Virus record (IMG/VR): IMGVR_UViG_2872698443_000007
Source: a virus
Taxonomy: Duplodnaviria > Heunggongvirae > Uroviricota > Caudoviricetes
Direction: 5' to 3' (one strand)
Length of the DNA stretch: 37,278 bases
A program made the position numbers and the translations under genes. A model generated the notes under the pieces. That model made no database searches. It was not told the origin of the DNA and worked only from the letters and a program-made list of their open reading frames with translations. Each line of letters begins with the position of its first letter. Within the stretch, counting starts at the first letter, position 1. Below are positions 9,896-29,040 of the stretch, in pieces.

Positions 9896-11068
9896 TTACG
9901 CGCTGACCTGGCTGGCGAAATTCACCAGGTACTGATCGGTGATGCGCTGACGCAGCATCAGGTTTTCAAGTGGCGGCACTGGCGTGTAGTCGTAGTCGAT
10001 AGTGAGTTTCCCGGCTTTCAGAGTGTCTTTGTCGTTCACCGACTCGTCCAGCCAGCAATCACCACCAATGAGATACCCCTGACTGACCAGGCTGCGCATT
10101 TTGGCGCGGATACCTTCGATAATGTCGCGGGCCAGCGACGGATTCAGCGGTTTGTCCACTGCCCACATGTGCGCTTCTGCCATCGTGTCCATCAGTACCT
10201 GCGCCGTGCGGGTGTAGTTTTCGAAGGCAAAGAGCGGGTCATCGCTCAGACAGCGGGAACCCCAGAAGCGGAAACCGTCTTTGCGGATAAGCGTGGTAAC
10301 GTCGTTCTGGTTAAGCAGACCTGCATCGGTTGCCGGGTCCTGCAGATCCCAGAACACATCAGCAGAAATTCCGGTGACACCGTTCACGCCCACGTTGGAC
10401 AGGCTTTTGTGCCATCCGGTCTGCTCATCAATTTTGGCGCGCAGACCGAGCGCACGGGCGGTGGCATATGCCGTTGCTTCGGCATTCAGCACCGTGTCCC
10501 AGCCCGTAAAGTCAGGCCAGATCAGCATCCCTTCGCGCTGGCTGAAGTTTTCACGGTAAGTGATCGCCTCCTGTACCGTCTTGCAGCCATACGCTGACAG
10601 GTAAGCAAACCCACGCAGGCTTTGCGCCACGCTCAGCAACTCAGTCGCAACGGCTTTGTTATCGTGGCCTGGCACGCCGAGAATGCGCGGTTTAACGCCG
10701 AGCTGTGACTGGGCAGATAACAGGGCTTTCATACCTGTTTTTTTACCTTCAGCAGTCACTGCGCCGATGATATTGGTCGTGGTTTCGTCTTCCGTTTCAC
10801 CCTGCGGCACACGCACAACAACGGTCACGGGTTTTGCCTGGTCAGCGATGGCATCCAGCGAACGGGCCAGAGTACCGGACTCACCCGCTTTACCGCTGGC
10901 AGTCAGCACATCAGTGATCAGCACGGGTTTATTAAGAGGAAACATTTTTGCATCGGCATCATCGCCCGTGCAGACCATACCCACGATGGCGGTGCTCACC
11001 GTGGTAATGGATCGGGTGCCTTCGTTGACTTCAACAACGCGCACCCCGTGGTGGTAATCCTGAGCCAT
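9896..11068 (-). CDS. FI: contractile tail sheath protein FI
   Basis: 390 aa, [32 protein letters not shown]...; first gene of the FI-FII-E-T-U-D operon. Confidence 0.8.
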
Positions 11069-11194
11069 AGTGGCGAACCTCCTGATTGGATTAGGCTTCG
11101 CCCTATGTTGAAGTGATTGTGCCTGACAAACAGCTAAGCGCAGTTGTACCGTTATTCATACAAAATGACGGTATTTGTCTGCTTGCAGGGATAA

Positions 11195-11782
11195 TCAACA
11201 TAATGCTGATTCAGGGGATTCATTGCTCTTATTTGCCGGAAATTTTCTATAAATTGTGGAAACACCTACATCAAAAATCAGTGCAATACGCTGTCTTGAT
11301 TCTCCGGCCTCGAGTAAACGTCCAATCTGTGCCCACTGTTCGGTGATCAACTTAGGACGGCGTCCACCTACTCTGCCTTTGGCGCGAGCTGCAGCCAGCC
11401 CCGCCCTGGTACGTTCAACTATCAGTTCGCGCTCCATTTCAGCCAGGGCCCCCATGACATGAAAAAAGAAACGGCCCATTGGGGTACTGGTATCAATACT
11501 GTCAGTCAGGCTTCGGAAATTCACGCCGCGTTCGCGCAGTTCCTCAACCAGAATGACCAGATGCCGCATACTACGCCCCAGCCTGTCCAGCTTCCAGACT
11601 ACCAGAGTGTCACCTGCTGATAATGTTCTGAGCAGTTTTTTCAGTCCCGGTCTGTCGGACTTCGTGCCGCTGATTTTATCCTCAAAAATCCGCTCGCATC
11701 CTGCGCACTCCAGCGCGTTACGCTGCAATTCCGTGTTCTGGTCATTTGTTGACACGCGTACATAGCCAATAAGCATGAGCAT
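11195..11782 (-). CDS. serine-recombinase DNA invertase (Hin/Gin/Cin/Pin family)
   Basis: 195 aa, MLIGYVRVSTNDQNTELQ... with the resolvase-type catalytic Ser motif (YVRVSTNDQ) and a C-terminal helix-turn-helix. Lies immediately outside the invertible tail-fibre segment. Confidence 0.85.
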   Translation of the reverse strand: MLMLIGYVRVSTNDQNTELQRNALECAGCERIFEDKISGTKSDRPGLKKLLRTLSAGDTLVVWKLDRLGRSMRHLVILVEELRERGVNFRSLTDSIDTSTPMGRFFFHVMGALAEMERELIVERTRAGLAAARAKGRVGGRRPKLITEQWAQIGRLLEAGESRQRIALIFDVGVSTIYRKFPANKSNESPESALC

Positions 11783-11803
11783 CCCCCTGAATAAAAACCG
11801 GAG

Positions 11804-12319
11804 ATGATGCCAGTTGCCCGTTATCTCTGCATTTTCATAAACGTTGGTTTGGGAGAAGGTGCTCCAGCTATTGGCGTTCCGTTCTTCTGGCCCTCCGCGG
11901 CAATGCCAAATACTGTAATCGACAGCTGGTCCAGTATGGTGTTTTTGAAGTTCAACGGCGCGAAATTCTCTGCCACTGATTACCCTGTGCTGGCGAAAGT
12001 GTTTCCTTCGCTGGTATTACCTGAAGCCCGCGGTGATTTCATTCGTATCTGGGATGATGGTCGTGGTGTAGATAGTGGACGTGGATTACTTAGTACGCAG
12101 TCTGACCTGATGAAACAATTTACTTTGCAATACTACGGTCCTTCTGCTGGTACTGGAACAAGAACGGTTTTCGCCCTCCAGAGTAATGCGAACGGCATAT
12201 ATACGAGTGGTATTAGTCAGAATGATGGTAGTGGCACCGCTGCGGCTTTTAATGTACCAGGCGGCACCGAAACACGCCCACGTAACATTGCATTCAACTT
12301 TTTAGTAAGGGCTAAATAA
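11804..12319 (+). CDS. alternative tail-fibre C-terminal cassette (promoterless in this orientation)
   Basis: Open frame reading ...INVGLGEGAPAIGVPFFWPSAAMPNTV... from the crossover site; would be fused to the constant part of H after inversion. The functional part probably starts at ~11858; the ORF-track start at 11804 is not a real start. Confidence 0.6.
   Translation: MMPVARYLCIFINVGLGEGAPAIGVPFFWPSAAMPNTVIDSWSSMVFLKFNGAKFSATDYPVLAKVFPSLVLPEARGDFIRIWDDGRGVDSGRGLLSTQSDLMKQFTLQYYGPSAGTGTRTVFALQSNANGIYTSGISQNDGSGTAAAFNVPGGTETRPRNIAFNFLVRAK
11832..11857. repeat. invertase crossover site (left, hix/gix-like 26-bp site)
   Basis: TTTTCATAAACG TT GGTTTGGGAGAA. The half-site GGTTTGGGAGAA (11846-11857) is the exact reverse complement of TTCTCCCAAACC at 13689-13700. 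Confidence 0.7.
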
Positions 12320-12912
12320 TGAAACCTGTTTTTGATAAAAATGGGCTGGCTACAGTGCCGGGTGATATGCGTTGTTTTTATTATGATGCAGTAACATCTG
12401 AATATACTGGCTGGTCTGATGAATATATTAATACTGGTGTAAGTATGCCCGCCTGTTCCACTGGTATTGACCCGGGCGAATACATTCCGGGGAAAGTGGC
12501 AGTATTTACGGGTAAGGGATGGAGCCATGAAGAAGACCATCGCAATGAGACCGTTTACTCAACTGAAAATGGCGCAGCTGTTACAGTGGATTATATCGGT
12601 GCCATCAAAGACGGTTATGTCACGCTTTCACCGTTAACGCCATACGATAAATGGGATGGTGAGAAATGGGTGACAGATACTGAGGCACAACACGGTGCCG
12701 CAGTAGAAGCGGCAGAAGCACAGCGCCAGTCACTGATTGATGCTGCAATGGCTTCCATCAGTCTGATTCAGCTGAAATTACAGGCCGGGCGGAAGCTGAC
12801 GCAGGCAGAAACCACCCGACTTAACATTGTGCTGGATTACATTGACGCGGTGACGGCAACAGATACCAGCACCGCGCCGGATGTCATCTGGCCTGAACTG
12901 CCGGAGGCGTAG
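12319..12912 (+). CDS. alternative tail-fibre assembly protein (U'/G'-like)
   Basis: 197 aa; TAATG overlap with the preceding cassette; C-terminus ...LDYIDAVTATDTSTAPDVIWPELPEA typical of tail-fibre assembly chaperones. Confidence 0.7.
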   Translation: MKPVFDKNGLATVPGDMRCFYYDAVTSEYTGWSDEYINTGVSMPACSTGIDPGEYIPGKVAVFTGKGWSHEEDHRNETVYSTENGAAVTVDYIGAIKDGYVTLSPLTPYDKWDGEKWVTDTEAQHGAAVEAAEAQRQSLIDAAMASISLIQLKLQAGRKLTQAETTRLNIVLDYIDAVTATDTSTAPDVIWPELPEA

Positions 12913-13396
12913 GCCATTCAATATCTGGCGCACTGGAGGAATCAACCAGTTCCAGTGCGTCCAGATAATCAAGCCATGAATTATATTGCGCCAGTTCCTC
13001 ACCTTTCAGACGACCAATAGCAGCCTTTCCTGGCCACTGCTTACTGTTAATATATTCATTAACTCGATTTATGAGTGCCTGTTTTTTTCGTTCCGCTTCT
13101 GACAGTTGTTCTTCATGAGTTAGCGGCGGTACGTCATCCCATGCAGGATAGCCATCATCACCCGCAACTCTCACCTTCCCTGGAGGTGGGGACAGGTACT
13201 TAATAAATATATCCTCATCAACTTCAACTCCATTATGAGGCCATAACCCAGACTCCTTATACTGACTTTCCAGAGTAAATGGGTAAAACATATTAGTTTT
13301 AGCATCGTAAAGATATTTACTCATTTTATCTTCCTGTAGCAAACCAGCGGCAACCAGCGACAGTTGGAACATTGAAGGATGGATTTCCTTTATCAA
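12884..13396 (-). CDS. G: tail-fibre assembly protein (G/U-like), currently expressed orientation
   Basis: C-terminus ...LDYLDALELVDSSSAPDIEWPTPP. 3' end overlaps the convergent alternative assembly gene. The real start is probably the internal Met at ~13324 (MSKYLYDAK...), 2 nt after the H stop. Confidence 0.7.
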   Translation of the reverse strand: MIKEIHPSMFQLSLVAAGLLQEDKMSKYLYDAKTNMFYPFTLESQYKESGLWPHNGVEVDEDIFIKYLSPPPGKVRVAGDDGYPAWDDVPPLTHEEQLSEAERKKQALINRVNEYINSKQWPGKAAIGRLKGEELAQYNSWLDYLDALELVDSSSAPDIEWPTPPAVQAR

Positions 13397-14750
13397 GAGA
13401 TCCCAGGTTCTCTGCTATGACATTTGAGTTAGTCAATTTATAGAATTGCCATACTGACATTTTCCCTGCCACAGGAGCCTGGTCATGTTCATTAATAGAA
13501 ATGACGGCTGTCGGAAATGGGATAGGAAAATTAATCAAAACTTCATTTGTTGTGGCCCCAGTTAGCCCCCATTGTTCAATATAACCATCCGGGCTTCGCC
13601 TCCATCCCGTCGTTGTATCTCCCCCACACTCCCACGCTGACATATCAGGAATTTGGTTTTGCCCGTTACCCACATCCCGTTTTGCCGCTTCTCCCAAACC
13701 AAGGTATGCGAGAAGACCAGCTACATCCTTTCCACTCAAATTAGTCAGCGTATTGTCCAGCGGTTGTTTACCTACCAGCGCATTAAGCATTGTCGTGGCA
13801 AAGTTCGGATCATTCCCCAGCGCCGCCGCCAGTTCGTTCAGTGTATCCAGTGCCGCAGGTGCAGAACCCACCATTGCCGCAATCGCCGATTTCACAAAAG
13901 CCGTAGTGGCAATCTGTGTATTGTTGACCGACTGCGCCGCCGTGGGGGCTGTTGGCGTTCCGGTGAGTGCCGGACTCGACAACGGTGCTTTTAGTGCCAG
14001 CGCATTGTTAATGGTGGTACTGAAATTCGGATCATTGTTAATGGCTGCGGCTATTTCTTTCAGCGTGTCCAGCGTGGCTGGCGCACCATTAATAAGGGCC
14101 GTCAGTGCCGCCTGTACAAACGCAGTGGTCGCAACCTGCGTGGTATTATTCCCCGCCGCTGGCGTTGGCGCTTTGGGGGTTCCGGTAAATGTCGGGCTGG
14201 CTTTTGGCGCGTACTGTGAATGTGGGTCCTGTGCAGCAAGATGTTTTGCCATCAGGTCATCCACGTACACCTTCAGCTCCAGTACCTTGTCATCCACATA
14301 CTTGCGGGTTGCCAGCACTACAGCAGGGTCGATTTTCAGGGTGATATTGTCCGTACTGCTGGTAATCAGCACCATGCGCACGGTCTGGGTGCGCCCGCTG
14401 CCTTCAGCCAGTTGCGGCTTATAGCTTTCCGGGCAGTTGCCCACGGCAATCAATGCCCCGGACTCATCAAACAGGCCCACTTCACGTATCCACCAACCGC
14501 CCTCGTTTTCAGGGATCACCTGTTCAGCAATAATCTGGCTGCTATTCTGCGGGTCGATATAAAGCATATTCAGCGCAGCCCGGCGTTTCTCATTTACCAG
14601 TGCCGTCTGCTTTGCGTCCGGCGTTGGCAATACTCCGCCGCCATCGCCCACCGCCATATGGGTAATTTTTAGCGGCACACCGAGCGCGGCGGCGCTGGCA
14701 AGTTTCGCCGCGCCAATATCCGTCAGCAGGGTATAAAATTTTGTGCTCAT
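13326..14750 (-). CDS. H: tail-fibre protein H (constant N-terminal part plus currently joined variable C-terminus)
   Basis: 474 aa, MSTKFYTLLTDIGAAKLASAAALGVPLKITHMAVGDGGG... Contains two tandem ~68-aa repeats; C-terminal 120 aa lie inside the invertible segment. Confidence 0.8.
   Translation of the reverse strand: MSTKFYTLLTDIGAAKLASAAALGVPLKITHMAVGDGGGVLPTPDAKQTALVNEKRRAALNMLYIDPQNSSQIIAEQVIPENEGGWWIREVGLFDESGALIAVGNCPESYKPQLAEGSGRTQTVRMVLITSSTDNITLKIDPAVVLATRKYVDDKVLELKVYVDDLMAKHLAAQDPHSQYAPKASPTFTGTPKAPTPAAGNNTTQVATTAFVQAALTALINGAPATLDTLKEIAAAINNDPNFSTTINNALALKAPLSSPALTGTPTAPTAAQSVNNTQIATTAFVKSAIAAMVGSAPAALDTLNELAAALGNDPNFATTMLNALVGKQPLDNTLTNLSGKDVAGLLAYLGLGEAAKRDVGNGQNQIPDMSAWECGGDTTTGWRRSPDGYIEQWGLTGATTNEVLINFPIPFPTAVISINEHDQAPVAGKMSVWQFYKLTNSNVIAENLGSLDKGNPSFNVPTVAGCRWFATGR
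13689..13714. repeat. invertase crossover site (right, inverted copy)
   Basis: TTCTCCCAAACC AA GGTATGCGAGAA. Lies inside the H gene exactly at the codons for GLGE; the alternative cassette on the opposite strand begins with the same GLGE codons. Confidence 0.7.
13767..14198 (-). repeat. diverged tandem duplication (2 x ~200 bp) inside tail-fibre gene H
   Basis: Protein repeats TGTPKAPTPAAGNNTTQVATTAFVQAALTALINGAPATLDTLKEIAAAINNDPNFSTTINNALALK and TGTPTAPTAAQSVNNTQIATTAFVKSAIAAMVGSAPAALDTLNELAAALGNDPNFATTMLNALVGK. Confidence 0.75.
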
Positions 14751-15352
14751 GGATTCACTCTCATTGTGTCAATAACATGGACCGCCCCGCCTTCATGCAC
14801 GGTGCCACCGGAAATAATCGTTTCGTTGATATACGGATAGATCGTGATTTCTTCGCCAAGATAGCTGGCGGCTCCCACCCAATGCGGGCCGCTGGTCTGC
14901 AGATTGATGGACATGCCGATCATGTGGCGGCTACATGGTTTGGCATCGCTTATCAGTCGCTCAAGTTCCAGATAGGTATCTTCAGTGATGCCCTGGTCCT
15001 GCACGCCGATATCCAGGCGAAACGTGCCCGGTGCCTCTCCGGTCTGCCACCACTCAATAATGCGGATCAGAAAGCCGAACGGCTCCACCACCCGCCGCAC
15101 GGCACTGGTGGTCCCTTTATGCTGATGAATATAAAAAGCATCCTTCACCACCTGGCGCTTGACGCTTTCCGTCCAGCTCTCGTCCCAGCGATCCACAGAG
15201 AACGCCCAGGCGAGATAAGGCAGGAAACTGACCGGACAGGTCGCCGGATTCCACAAGTCACGCAGTGGCACCTGCAGATCAGAAATCCCGCTGCAGGTGT
15301 GCGCCAGTCGGCGCTCCAGTGGTGTTGAACCCGGTGGCAGCAGACTATTCAT
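14747..15352 (-). CDS. I: baseplate / tail protein I
   Basis: 201 aa; ATGA overlap with H; P2 order J-I-H. Confidence 0.7.
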   Translation of the reverse strand: MNSLLPPGSTPLERRLAHTCSGISDLQVPLRDLWNPATCPVSFLPYLAWAFSVDRWDESWTESVKRQVVKDAFYIHQHKGTTSAVRRVVEPFGFLIRIIEWWQTGEAPGTFRLDIGVQDQGITEDTYLELERLISDAKPCSRHMIGMSINLQTSGPHWVGAASYLGEEITIYPYINETIISGGTVHEGGAVHVIDTMRVNP

Positions 15353-26029: not shown

Positions 26030-27796
26030 TTAATTATTATCGTATAACTCCTGAATTTTTGCTGGATTAGCAAAAAACCTTGCAGGATAAGCATTTGGAT
26101 AATTATCTTCGATATAATTTTCTGTCCTAGCTATTAATGCTGCTAAATTAGCAGTGATTTGTGCTGAATCAGGAGCAAGCTGAATGGTACTATTCTGTAA
26201 ATCTGACACCATATTCAACAGCACTGAAGCATAATATCTATTACCATGAGTTATTATTAAATGACGGCGACTATGCGTTGATTTATCTGTAGCTGCTAAA
26301 GTTGAGCTAATAGCACGTTCTATCACACGAAAATGGTTAACAGCATTTATTAACTTGATACCACTTAATCGCGGATTGAAAATTGTTCTATATAATGACC
26401 CTTCAAAATTTTCAAAAAACCTACCACGATTAGATTTTAAAGTTGCAACTATAGTATTATTTTTACTTAAGCAAGCTAGAGCATTCAAAGCCTCATCGAG
26501 ATCAATTACCTTGGCGTTAGACTGTAAATAATCCTCATCGGTTCGCAATAATTGGTATTGATACCCTTCAAGCACAAGCTCTCTCGCCAGTCTATGCTGA
26601 TCGGGTTGTTGTGAAGCAAAATCTCTTCCTAAAACTCTATTCTGGAAATTATTAGCTCTGGTTATTGCATTGGCATTGAGATCATTTACATCATTATTAA
26701 TTTCAATAAAACGAACAGGGACTTTAACTTGATAAATTCTATCGCCTAGCACATCCATAACACTGCCTAAACTACTCACAGTTTGCGCGCCGTTGATCAC
26801 ACTCACATCTTTAAAATCGAAAACCCCTCTTTCAGTGCCTGCAGCTGCGTTTCTTCTGTGAGGAATTAACTCGTTCACTAGTAACGTAATACCGTTATTG
26901 TAAAACCAAAACATTTCTGGATTATCAATTGCAGTTTTTTTTATTTCTTCGTTAACATCTGTCTTACCAAGCATATTTCTTATGTTTTTCGTAAAAAGGC
27001 GGGTTCCATATTGTTTCCACCAATTCCCAACCTGGTCCCCAGCTAAAGTTCCATAAAATGCTCTGTAAGGTTCATTAATAAACCCATAGCGTTCAACTTC
27101 TACGCCATCCAAATCAATTTGACCTCTTGAGCCAGTCTGCAACCAATGGACTAAATCCTCTGATGAAATCAAATGAACTTGAAACCCCCATTCTTCTTTC
27201 GGTGATTCTGTCGGGGTAAACGACGCTTCATTTAATTCACGTTGCCACTCTTGCATATCACGTAAAATATCTTCTGAGGCACCTTTTTTCCCTGTGTGAG
27301 TCATAGCGAAGATAAATTTATAATCAAATGAATTAAGAGCTGCGCTTATATCTGAACTCTTATCTTGAAGAATCTGGTCAAAAAGTTCATATCGTTCATT
27401 CTGAAGTTTTTCACAAGCATCCTTGAAGCACACAAAATCAGGTCTGCTCCAAGTACCATTTCCAGCCTGATTAAATTTGGACTGAACAACTACAACAATT
27501 TTTTCACTATGATTTATGACTATGCCATCAATGCCTCCATCCTCAGAACTGTCGCATACAGACTCACCTGCATGCTTTTCATCAACACCACCAAGTTGAT
27601 ACATCGTAAACGCCGCCAGAGCCCTACTTGCCATTTTAATATTGTAATCTTGTTGACTGGGTTGGCACTCTCGCTTATGAACATAGTCTTCAAACCTTTC
27701 TCTCAAAACACTACCAAGCCTTAGAGCTATAACTTGCGCCGTCGCCGCTGCAGCTACAGCGTTATCCTCAACTCGGAGATCTACAACGAATGCCAT
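26030..27796 (-). CDS. cargo protein with N-terminal Mrr-type PD-(D/E)xK nuclease signature; function unknown, candidate defence effector
   Basis: ~588 aa from the first ATG at 27796 (AAGGA ribosome-binding site 8 nt upstream); the ORF track extends to a TTG at 27823. Motif ...EDGGIDGIVINHSEKIVVVVQSKF... fits the restriction-endonuclease D-x(n)-Q/E-x-K pattern. No Walker A motif. AT-rich relative to flanking phage genes. Confidence 0.6.
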   Translation of the reverse strand: MAFVVDLRVEDNAVAAAATAQVIALRLGSVLRERFEDYVHKRECQPSQQDYNIKMASRALAAFTMYQLGGVDEKHAGESVCDSSEDGGIDGIVINHSEKIVVVVQSKFNQAGNGTWSRPDFVCFKDACEKLQNERYELFDQILQDKSSDISAALNSFDYKFIFAMTHTGKKGASEDILRDMQEWQRELNEASFTPTESPKEEWGFQVHLISSEDLVHWLQTGSRGQIDLDGVEVERYGFINEPYRAFYGTLAGDQVGNWWKQYGTRLFTKNIRNMLGKTDVNEEIKKTAIDNPEMFWFYNNGITLLVNELIPHRRNAAAGTERGVFDFKDVSVINGAQTVSSLGSVMDVLGDRIYQVKVPVRFIEINNDVNDLNANAITRANNFQNRVLGRDFASQQPDQHRLARELVLEGYQYQLLRTDEDYLQSNAKVIDLDEALNALACLSKNNTIVATLKSNRGRFFENFEGSLYRTIFNPRLSGIKLINAVNHFRVIERAISSTLAATDKSTHSRRHLIITHGNRYYASVLLNMVSDLQNSTIQLAPDSAQITANLAALIARTENYIEDNYPNAYPARFFANPAKIQELYDNN

Positions 27797-28167: not shown

Positions 28168-29040
28168 TTAAGCTCTCTTAATCAACCCCTTATGCGTTGC
28201 TTTGGTAAGATAAGCTAATTCTTTAGGCCCCTTATCTCTAAAGCCCACCCATTCTGGTTGGATTTTTATAAAACTTGGAATTGCGGTTGCCAAGGCTGTA
28301 ACCATACCGGGAATAATACCGCCTGAATAACCAGCAATAGCAGCATGGTACAACGGTTTTAAAAATTCCATAACCTGCCCACCATCTACTTCTGGATTGG
28401 CTTTGACTCCCATTCTGATAGGATTTCTCCATTTCCCTTCGATAGCTTTATCAAGATTAACTACAGCCTCTTGTAATAAAGAAAAATTTTTAGCCCTCGT
28501 TAGATTAGGGTCTCTAGAATAAAGGACTTCAGTATACAGTTTTTCTAAGTACTCATGTAACGCATTAAGATCATCCTGACAATCATCTTTAAAACGTAAT
28601 ATATCTTCTATATGAGCATCTTTATCAGGAATTCTCAGAACATTAAACAACTCCAATCTCAACTGAAGGGCCGTTTTCTGTTCTTTATCATATATTAAAT
28701 TTTCCCCTGTTTGATGAAAGTGCCAATAAGTAGCAGGCTCGTTCTTCCTGAATTCATCCAATGTCTGCAACTGAAATTCCGTATATAAAAATGGAAAGTC
28801 TTGGATATTCAGCATACCATCATGTTTCATAATAGGTCTACGTAATACCCCATTATCTAATAATTCTTTTTCTTTAGGCACAATCGAGTGAATATTTTCA
28901 CTATCTAGAATAACCACATCATCCCAGTAAAAGCAGAAATAATTAATATCCTGCTCAGTTAAACCTGCCCCAAGATAGACCGTACTATTATTTCTATGAA
29001 AACTCATTTCATTAGGATTAGCTACAATGCCACGTTTCAT
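28168..29040 (-). CDS. hypothetical cargo protein, function unknown (position of P2 tin/old)
   Basis: ~290 aa from the ATG at 29040 (AAGGAG ribosome-binding site 5 nt upstream): MKRGIVANPNEMSFHRNNSTVYLGAGLTEQ... Strongly AT-rich. C-terminal hydrophobic stretch GGIIPGMVTALATAIPSFI. No recognisable catalytic motif. Confidence 0.6.
   Translation of the reverse strand: MKRGIVANPNEMSFHRNNSTVYLGAGLTEQDINYFCFYWDDVVILDSENIHSIVPKEKELLDNGVLRRPIMKHDGMLNIQDFPFLYTEFQLQTLDEFRKNEPATYWHFHQTGENLIYDKEQKTALQLRLELFNVLRIPDKDAHIEDILRFKDDCQDDLNALHEYLEKLYTEVLYSRDPNLTRAKNFSLLQEAVVNLDKAIEGKWRNPIRMGVKANPEVDGGQVMEFLKPLYHAAIAGYSGGIIPGMVTALATAIPSFIKIQPEWVGFRDKGPKELAYLTKATHKGLIKRA

Follow-up and report, generated by a model that had tools for sequence, protein, structure and literature searches.

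The stretch of DNA analysed here, IMG/VR virus record IMGVR_UViG_2872698443_000007, is a P2-like (Peduoviridae) prophage of Escherichia coli, and its whole length of 37,278 bases is called the window in what follows. Between the fibre chaperone gene and FI, a DNA invertase gene adjoins a segment that is bounded by two inverted crossover sites, reaches into the tail-fibre gene H, and carries two opposed fibre C-termini. The original prediction, made from the letters alone, had taken this for a host-range switch of the kind seen in Mu and P1. Both orientations of the segment occur in nature, with breakpoints inside the sites.

Layout of the invertible segment

As sequenced, the locus is made up of the following features:

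11195-11776, minus strand: DNA invertase, a small serine recombinase of the Gin/Cin/Pin/Hin family, 193 amino acids from MLIGYVRVSTNDQ… (Pfam, Gin alignment, PHROG)
11832-11857: left 26-bp crossover site, plus strand TTTTCATAAACG TT GGTTTGGGAGAA, reverse strand TTCTCCCAAACC AA CGTTTATGAAAA, core TT at 11844-11845
11844-13702: invertible segment, 1859 bp core to core
11846-12319, plus strand: silent alternative fibre C-terminus (Hv'), about 157 amino acids, GLGEGAPAIGVPFFWPS…VRAK
12319-12912, plus strand: assembly chaperone of the silent cassette, 197 amino acids (Pfam Caudo_TAP 5e-27; PHROG 105 "tail fiber assembly" 8e-84)
12884-13324, minus strand: G-like assembly chaperone of the expressed cassette, 146 amino acids (Pfam Caudo_TAP 1.8e-33; PHROG 188 4.7e-58 from residue 1)
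13326-14750, minus strand: tail-fibre gene H, 474 amino acids as sequenced
13326-13700, minus strand: variable C-terminus of H that faces the constant part as sequenced (Hv), GLGEAAKRDVG…FATGR
13689-13714: right 26-bp crossover site, inside gene H, TTCTCCCAAACC AA GGTATGCGAGAA, core AA at 13701-13702
13703-14750, minus strand: constant N-terminal part of H (Hc), about 349 amino acids ending in …LLAYL (Pfam Phage_tail_fib N-terminal domain, 5.7e-65)

The invertase carries the Pfam domains Resolvase (3.5e-53, residues 5-137) and HTH_7 (1.3e-14, residues 140-183), aligns over residues 1-185 with the Mu Gin crystal-structure sequences 3uj3 and 4m6f (E = 9e-92), and matches PHROG 125, "DNA invertase", at 1.6e-100; P1 Cin is as close to it as Gin is. 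The catalytic nucleophile Ser9, which is mutated to Ala in 3uj3, is kept (MLIGYVRVS), and the protein has the build of the enhancer-dependent small serine recombinases Gin, Hin, Cin and Pin, with about 190 amino acids, an N-terminal resolvase domain bearing Ser9/10, and a C-terminal helix-turn-helix. Its start codon is most likely the ATG at 11776 (MLIGY…), which aligns with Gin residue 1 and agrees with the 582-nt call of RefSeq; an in-frame ATG at 11782 is possible, if less likely (193-195 amino acids).

The two crossover sites lie within an inverted repeat of 27 nt (11832-11858 and 13688-13714) that is 81% complementary and the longest between 9000 and 15500. Both are 26 bp long, with imperfect 12-bp half-sites around an identical 2-bp core (AA in site orientation). 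The inner half-sites are exact reverse complements of each other, and the central dinucleotides agree in the inverted orientation. Perfect inverted identity covers 15 nt, made up of the inner half-site, the core, and one more base. The 12-bp half-site TTCTCCCAAACC is found in exactly two copies in the 37 kb, one on each strand, where 0.24 would be expected by chance, and a degenerate invertase-site pattern, modelled on the hix, gix and cix sites, matches the window at these two sites only and in none of 100 shuffles. No third crossover site, of the kind that makes a shufflon in one enteropathogenic E. coli (EPEC) prophage, turned up in the window at up to three mismatches. The sites of the best-known relatives, extracted from the P1 and phage Mu records, read:

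P1 cixR: TTCTCTTAAACC AA GGTATTGGATAA
P1 cixL: TTCTCTTAAACC AA GGTTTAGGATTG
Mu gix: TTATCCAAAACC TC GGTTTACAGGAA

The right site differs from cixR at 5 of the 26 positions. Judged by their sequence, both window sites are cix-like, with an AA core as in P1 cix.

The constant part of H lies outside the segment and the two alternative C-termini lie opposed within it. Both C-termini match the C-terminal ends of tail-fibre PHROG profiles: Hv, which also matches Pfam Gp53-like_C (4.5e-11, residues 387-474 of H), falls among tail-fibre and virion-structural PHROGs, and Hv' matches the tail-fibre profiles of PHROG 523 and 3100 at 1e-49. Each has its own chaperone gene, and the two cassettes converge. 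Both chaperone genes are Caudo_TAP, and they fall in separate PHROG families (105 and 188). That of the silent cassette overlaps the Hv' stop with its own start (TAATG). For that of the expressed cassette, the ATG at 13324 (146 amino acids) is the most likely start, rather than the TTG at 13396; RefSeq gives the same 441-nt call for it in the identical sequence of E. coli DETEC-P61, a genome to which we return below. The inner half-site of the right crossover site encodes the G-L-G-E of H (…LLAYL/GLGEAAKRD…), and these four residues are also read from the left site, in the frame of the silent cassette (…GLGEGAPAIG…). When 11844-13702 is reverse-complemented in silico, H reads …LLAYL/GLGEGAPAIG… through to a stop at 507 amino acids, with the 197-amino-acid chaperone next. 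The 474- and 507-amino-acid forms of H are thus both open, and they have residues 1-353 in common, through …LAYLGLGE.

The RefSeq annotation of the DETEC-P61 sequence gives the P2 late order V-W-J-I-H-G … FI-FII-E-T-U-D-ogr, with an accessory locus after G and ahead of FI. In P2 this place is taken by fun(Z), and the invertase and switch module, placed between the fibre chaperone and FI, occupy this Z/fun position. The original prediction had proposed a Gin/Hin-family invertase at the Z/fun position, two imperfect 26-bp sites sharing an exactly inverted 12-bp half-site, a right site in frame at the GLGE codons of H, and two convergent fibre C-termini with a chaperone each. It had also staked itself on the catalytic serine, which the alignment finds in place. 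This anatomy is confirmed in every particular, with small corrections to the start codons of the invertase and of the expressed chaperone.

Two smaller features lie between the left site and the invertase. On the invertase strand (11815-11796, minus), a weak hairpin is followed by a T-run (AACTGGCATCATCTCCGGTT TTTATTCAGG). This region, 11796-11815, is partly conserved with Mu, and the hairpin and T-run might reduce transcription that runs on from the late fibre operon into the invertase gene. An ATG at 11804, outside the segment, is 22 nt from the invertase open reading frame (ORF) start at 11782 and divergent to it, and its frame (MMPVARYLCIFINV-GLGE…) enters whichever cassette is silent. The resulting ORF, 11804-12319 on the plus strand, has 171 amino acids in the window form and 138 in the flipped form, where RefSeq names it "gp53-like domain-containing protein". 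The ATG of this call is fortuitous.

Both orientations in public genomes

The window was flipped in silico at the central dinucleotides and compared with public assemblies, that is, with assembled genomes rather than reads. A 601-nt query across the predicted flipped junction finds a 100% match in E. coli DETEC-P61, from which 41 kb were retrieved for a comparison of the full window. The flipped window is 100.000% identical to NZ_CP116152.1 2959749-2997026, over 37,278 bases with 0 mismatches and 0 gaps. The unflipped window aligns to the same stretch in three blocks, of which the middle one is reversed in strand; neighbouring blocks share bases at their ends only inside the sites. The identical stretch takes in the chromosomal flank, where grxA is interrupted by IS903B. 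Since this flank is identical as well, the two genomes must be very close relatives, and the inversion is the sole difference between them in 37 kb. The part of H that lies outside the segment is the same in both forms, and the 507-amino-acid H predicted from the flip is present as an ORF in this real genome.

The orientation of the window itself is found in S163-2 and TUM9754, which match it at 100% over 11000-14800 and at 100% across the native junction. A second pair shows the same kind of difference in a related prophage: between ZF31 and ZF34, isolates from the same swine-faeces source, the homologous segment of 2.29 kb is flipped, its flanks are 100% identical, and the two isolates have the same proteins. 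Because DETEC-P61 has the flipped form, S163-2 and TUM9754 have the window form, and ZF31 and ZF34 differ from each other likewise, both orientations occur in nature. The inverted orientation on which the original prediction hinged thus exists, in exact form in DETEC-P61 and as a second flip in ZF31/ZF34. Flipping a sequence in silico and comparing it with public assemblies can in this way demonstrate an inversion with zero mismatches and without reads.

The ZF31/ZF34 segment has a peculiarity of its own, in that a 208-bp unit stands in two tandem copies, 97.6% identical, within the gp53-like cassette (2027-2438 of locus L002 and 4711-5122 of locus L003).

Proposed inversion and its alternatives

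The layout of the locus, the open fused frame in either state and the existence of both states in nature are observed. Beyond this, we propose with a probability of about 0.9 that a Gin/Cin-type site-specific inversion, probably dependent on a Fis-bound enhancer, swaps the fibre tip together with its chaperone and gives two virion types per lysogen. In this mechanism, invertase dimers would bind both 26-bp sites and then, as in the Hin, Gin and Cin systems, form a synapse at an enhancer that carries Fis and lies within the 5' part of the invertase gene itself. Ser9 would cut both sites at the central AA/TT dinucleotide, one subunit pair would rotate by 180 degrees, and religation would leave the 1859-bp segment flipped. 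Hc (to …LAYL) would stay fixed and be transcribed from the late operon, and the cassette facing it would provide GLGE, the C-terminal tip, and the matching chaperone just downstream. A population of lysogens would then release two kinds of virion, with either the 474- or the 507-amino-acid fibre. We infer that the flipping is done by the resident invertase rather than by a paralogue in trans. The two tips may bind different receptors or give different host ranges, as in the systems on which this reading is modelled. The alternative C-terminus has no similarity to the C-terminus of P2 H (E = 4.1), so nothing about receptors is drawn from P2.

The enhancer is placed by comparison with P1, whose record annotates the Cin enhancer at +19..+90 of cin:

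11687-11758, minus strand: putative recombinational enhancer (two Fis sites) at the 5' end of the invertase gene, +19..+90, by homology and position

This stretch, some 90 bp away from the left crossover site, is identical to the P1 enhancer at 56 of 72 positions and to Mu at 53 of 72. It has the G…C 15-mers GTGTCAACAAATGAC and GCGCAGGATGCGAGC at the positions of the two Fis sites in Hin and Cin. An enhancer here, and a role for Fis, are suggested by these resemblances.

Four points weigh against the proposed switch, or against parts of it. The putative enhancer shows no synonymous-site excess over the rest of the gene in comparison with Mu and P1: identity at third codon positions is 46% in +19..+90 versus 38% elsewhere against P1, and 38% versus 43% against Mu. 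Coding constraint could therefore by itself account for the conservation of the stretch, and the assignment of the enhancer rests on homology and position. Secondly, the evidence on orientation compares assemblies, not reads from one culture, which bears on the switching rate and current activity in this strain. The difference in host range, thirdly, is a prediction drawn from the Mu G and P1 C systems. Finally, the same genomes hold further related invertase/fibre loci, in 3-5 places in S163-2.

From this last point it follows that the flip could be catalysed in trans, by the Pin of e14 or by another prophage's invertase, with the local gene inactive or dispensable. Gin-family invertases are known to cross-complement; the Qin prophage, for instance, supplies a PinQ that inverts the segment of e14 (PMC12529663). 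Genes like pinE share about 83% of their DNA sequence with the invertase gene. However, the local gene is full-length, aligned with Gin over residues 1-185, and in possession of Ser9; it sits 68 bp from its site, as in Mu, in an arrangement kept in 663 genomes. We therefore regard action in trans as improbable, though it is the best placed of the alternatives.

The switch might also be kept mainly for the benefit of the lysogen. In one orientation, the silent cassette could yield a fibre tip on its own, which would cover a receptor on the cell surface and keep competing phages from adsorbing and superinfecting. Such a role has been reported for PinQ/StfE2 and the e14 segment (PMC12529663); here, the prophage that defends its lysogen would be P2-like, intact and inducible. 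Whichever way the segment lies, an ATG just outside it stands ahead of the silent cassette (ORF 11804-12319 in the window), and RefSeq calls the short silent-cassette ORF a gene in the flipped form. Yet a promoter/terminator scan of 10900-14900 gave four promoter-like sites where 5.8 were expected, with none usable for the invertase or the silent cassette and no promoter-like site for the short ORF. Moreover, the prophage looks complete, from ogr to int, which makes a role in virion host range the simple reading and a role kept mainly for the lysogen very unlikely.

Although the comparison covered assemblies, RecA-dependent recombination between the inverted repeats or an assembly artefact is the least likely source of the two orientations: perfect repeat identity is just 15 nt, a length at which RecA does not recombine efficiently, both breakpoints lie precisely inside 26-bp cix-like sites next to an intact Gin-family invertase, the same flip arose independently in the related prophage of ZF31 and ZF34, and an assembler that picked one of two orientations would itself mean a mixed population.

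Relatives, surroundings and significance

The proposed site-specific inversion has close models among the invertible tail-fibre switches, which include Mu G, P1 C, e14 P and p15B Min. The P1 C segment with Cin is alike in the sequence of its sites, which is nearly the same and has the AA core, in its homologous invertase, in the stretch annotated as enhancer in P1 (56 of 72 positions), and in joining a constant fibre N-terminus to two convergent cassettes of C-terminus and chaperone. It differs in that cin reads toward the segment, with cixL overlapping its 3' end, whereas the window invertase reads away and has its 5' end beside the site. The P1 segment is also larger (4.2 kb versus 1.86 kb), and the backbone is that of P1 instead of a P2-like phage. 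The layout is closer to the G segment of Mu, with fibre gene, chaperone, inverted second chaperone, inverted second C-terminus, site and outward-reading invertase in the same succession. The orientation of the invertase gene agrees, the distance from site centre to invertase ATG is 67 bp in Mu (gixR-gin) and 68 bp in the window, and the crossover falls at an equivalent fibre motif, …NLGLQE in Mu and …YLGLGE here. In contrast, the gix core is TC where the window has AA, the Mu segment is 3 kb long, and the cassette sequences are unrelated. The P segment of e14 with PinE, in E. coli K-12, is also a switch of fibre C-termini, and its invertase is homologous to that of the window, with DNA about 83% identical across two thirds of the query, but e14 is a defective lambdoid element and the window is an apparently complete P2-like prophage.

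The nearest relatives are fibre segments of other P2-like prophages, namely those of EPEC E2348/69, Fels-2 with Fin, and the Z/fun invertases, which have the same phage family and the same position. One EPEC prophage has three sites where the window has two; otherwise these segments differ from the window only in their pair of cassettes. Phage records cover 52-65% of a 3.8-kb query. Among them, Escherichia phages Cartapus and 500465-1 and many Klebsiella P2-like phages have the same arrangement, annotated "DNA invertase", and Cartapus, 500465-1 and Klebsiella phage KP12 reach 94-96% identity over about half of the query. In E. coli, an 802-nt stretch made up of the FI-upstream region, the invertase and the left site is covered to at least 80% in 663 of 5,426 complete genomes. 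Coexisting orientations have been seen by sequencing in two EPEC P2-like prophages, one with a two-state switch and the other with a three-site shufflon (Goldberg et al., 2014; PMC4272514), and invertases in the Z/fun hotspot have already been reported (bioRxiv 10.1101/2024.10.15.618418). Since the arrangement is carried by 663 genomes, inversion was shown in EPEC, and Z/fun invertases were reported, the kind, position and behaviour of the switch have all been described before, and it is common in P2-like prophages.

The surrounding prophage is complete by the RefSeq annotation of the identical DETEC-P61 sequence, which has the P2 late and early genes of a full P2-type prophage from ogr to int. 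Along the locus, the gene order is ogr, D, U, T, E/E', FII, FI, invertase, invertible module, H, I, J, W, V, S, R, followed by lysis genes, X, L, M, N, O, P, Q, an accessory island, A, dam, cII-like, CI and int. The first base of the window is the start of grxA, which in that annotation is split by IS903B (IS5-like) over 1-1324, with the transposase at about 144-1112. The accessory island occupies the old/tin hotspot of P2, between the portal gene Q and the replication gene A, and RefSeq places two genes in it:

26030-27796, minus strand: AIPR-family protein
28168-29040, minus strand: DUF6236 protein

AIPR is an abortive-infection-type family, and the island with these two proteins is likely anti-phage cargo. 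A perfect TGT-N12-ACA dyad, TGTACCGTTATTCATACA, stands at 11145-11162, after the end of the invertase gene and some 85 bp before FI starts. It resembles the Ogr/Delta activator-site consensus of P2 late promoters, but the alignment with P2 pF is too poor to confirm this. The FI-upstream region as a whole is poorly conserved when aligned with the P2 pF region, and the claim of a late promoter is therefore limited to position.

A further fibre switch of the Gin family, in yet another P2-like prophage, carries little weight as a discovery. Its annotation is of more practical interest. In the flipped form, the fibre gene is intact:

3828-5351 of locus L001 (about 2972975-2974498 of NZ_CP116152.1), minus strand: intact 507-amino-acid fibre ORF in DETEC-P61

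RefSeq nevertheless splits it into two pseudogene fragments described as "incomplete; partial in the middle of a contig", and the same split is made in ZF31 and ZF34 (L002 and L003). Apparently the annotation goes astray at fibre genes that invert, and such pseudogene calls can mislead predictions of prophage completeness and host range.

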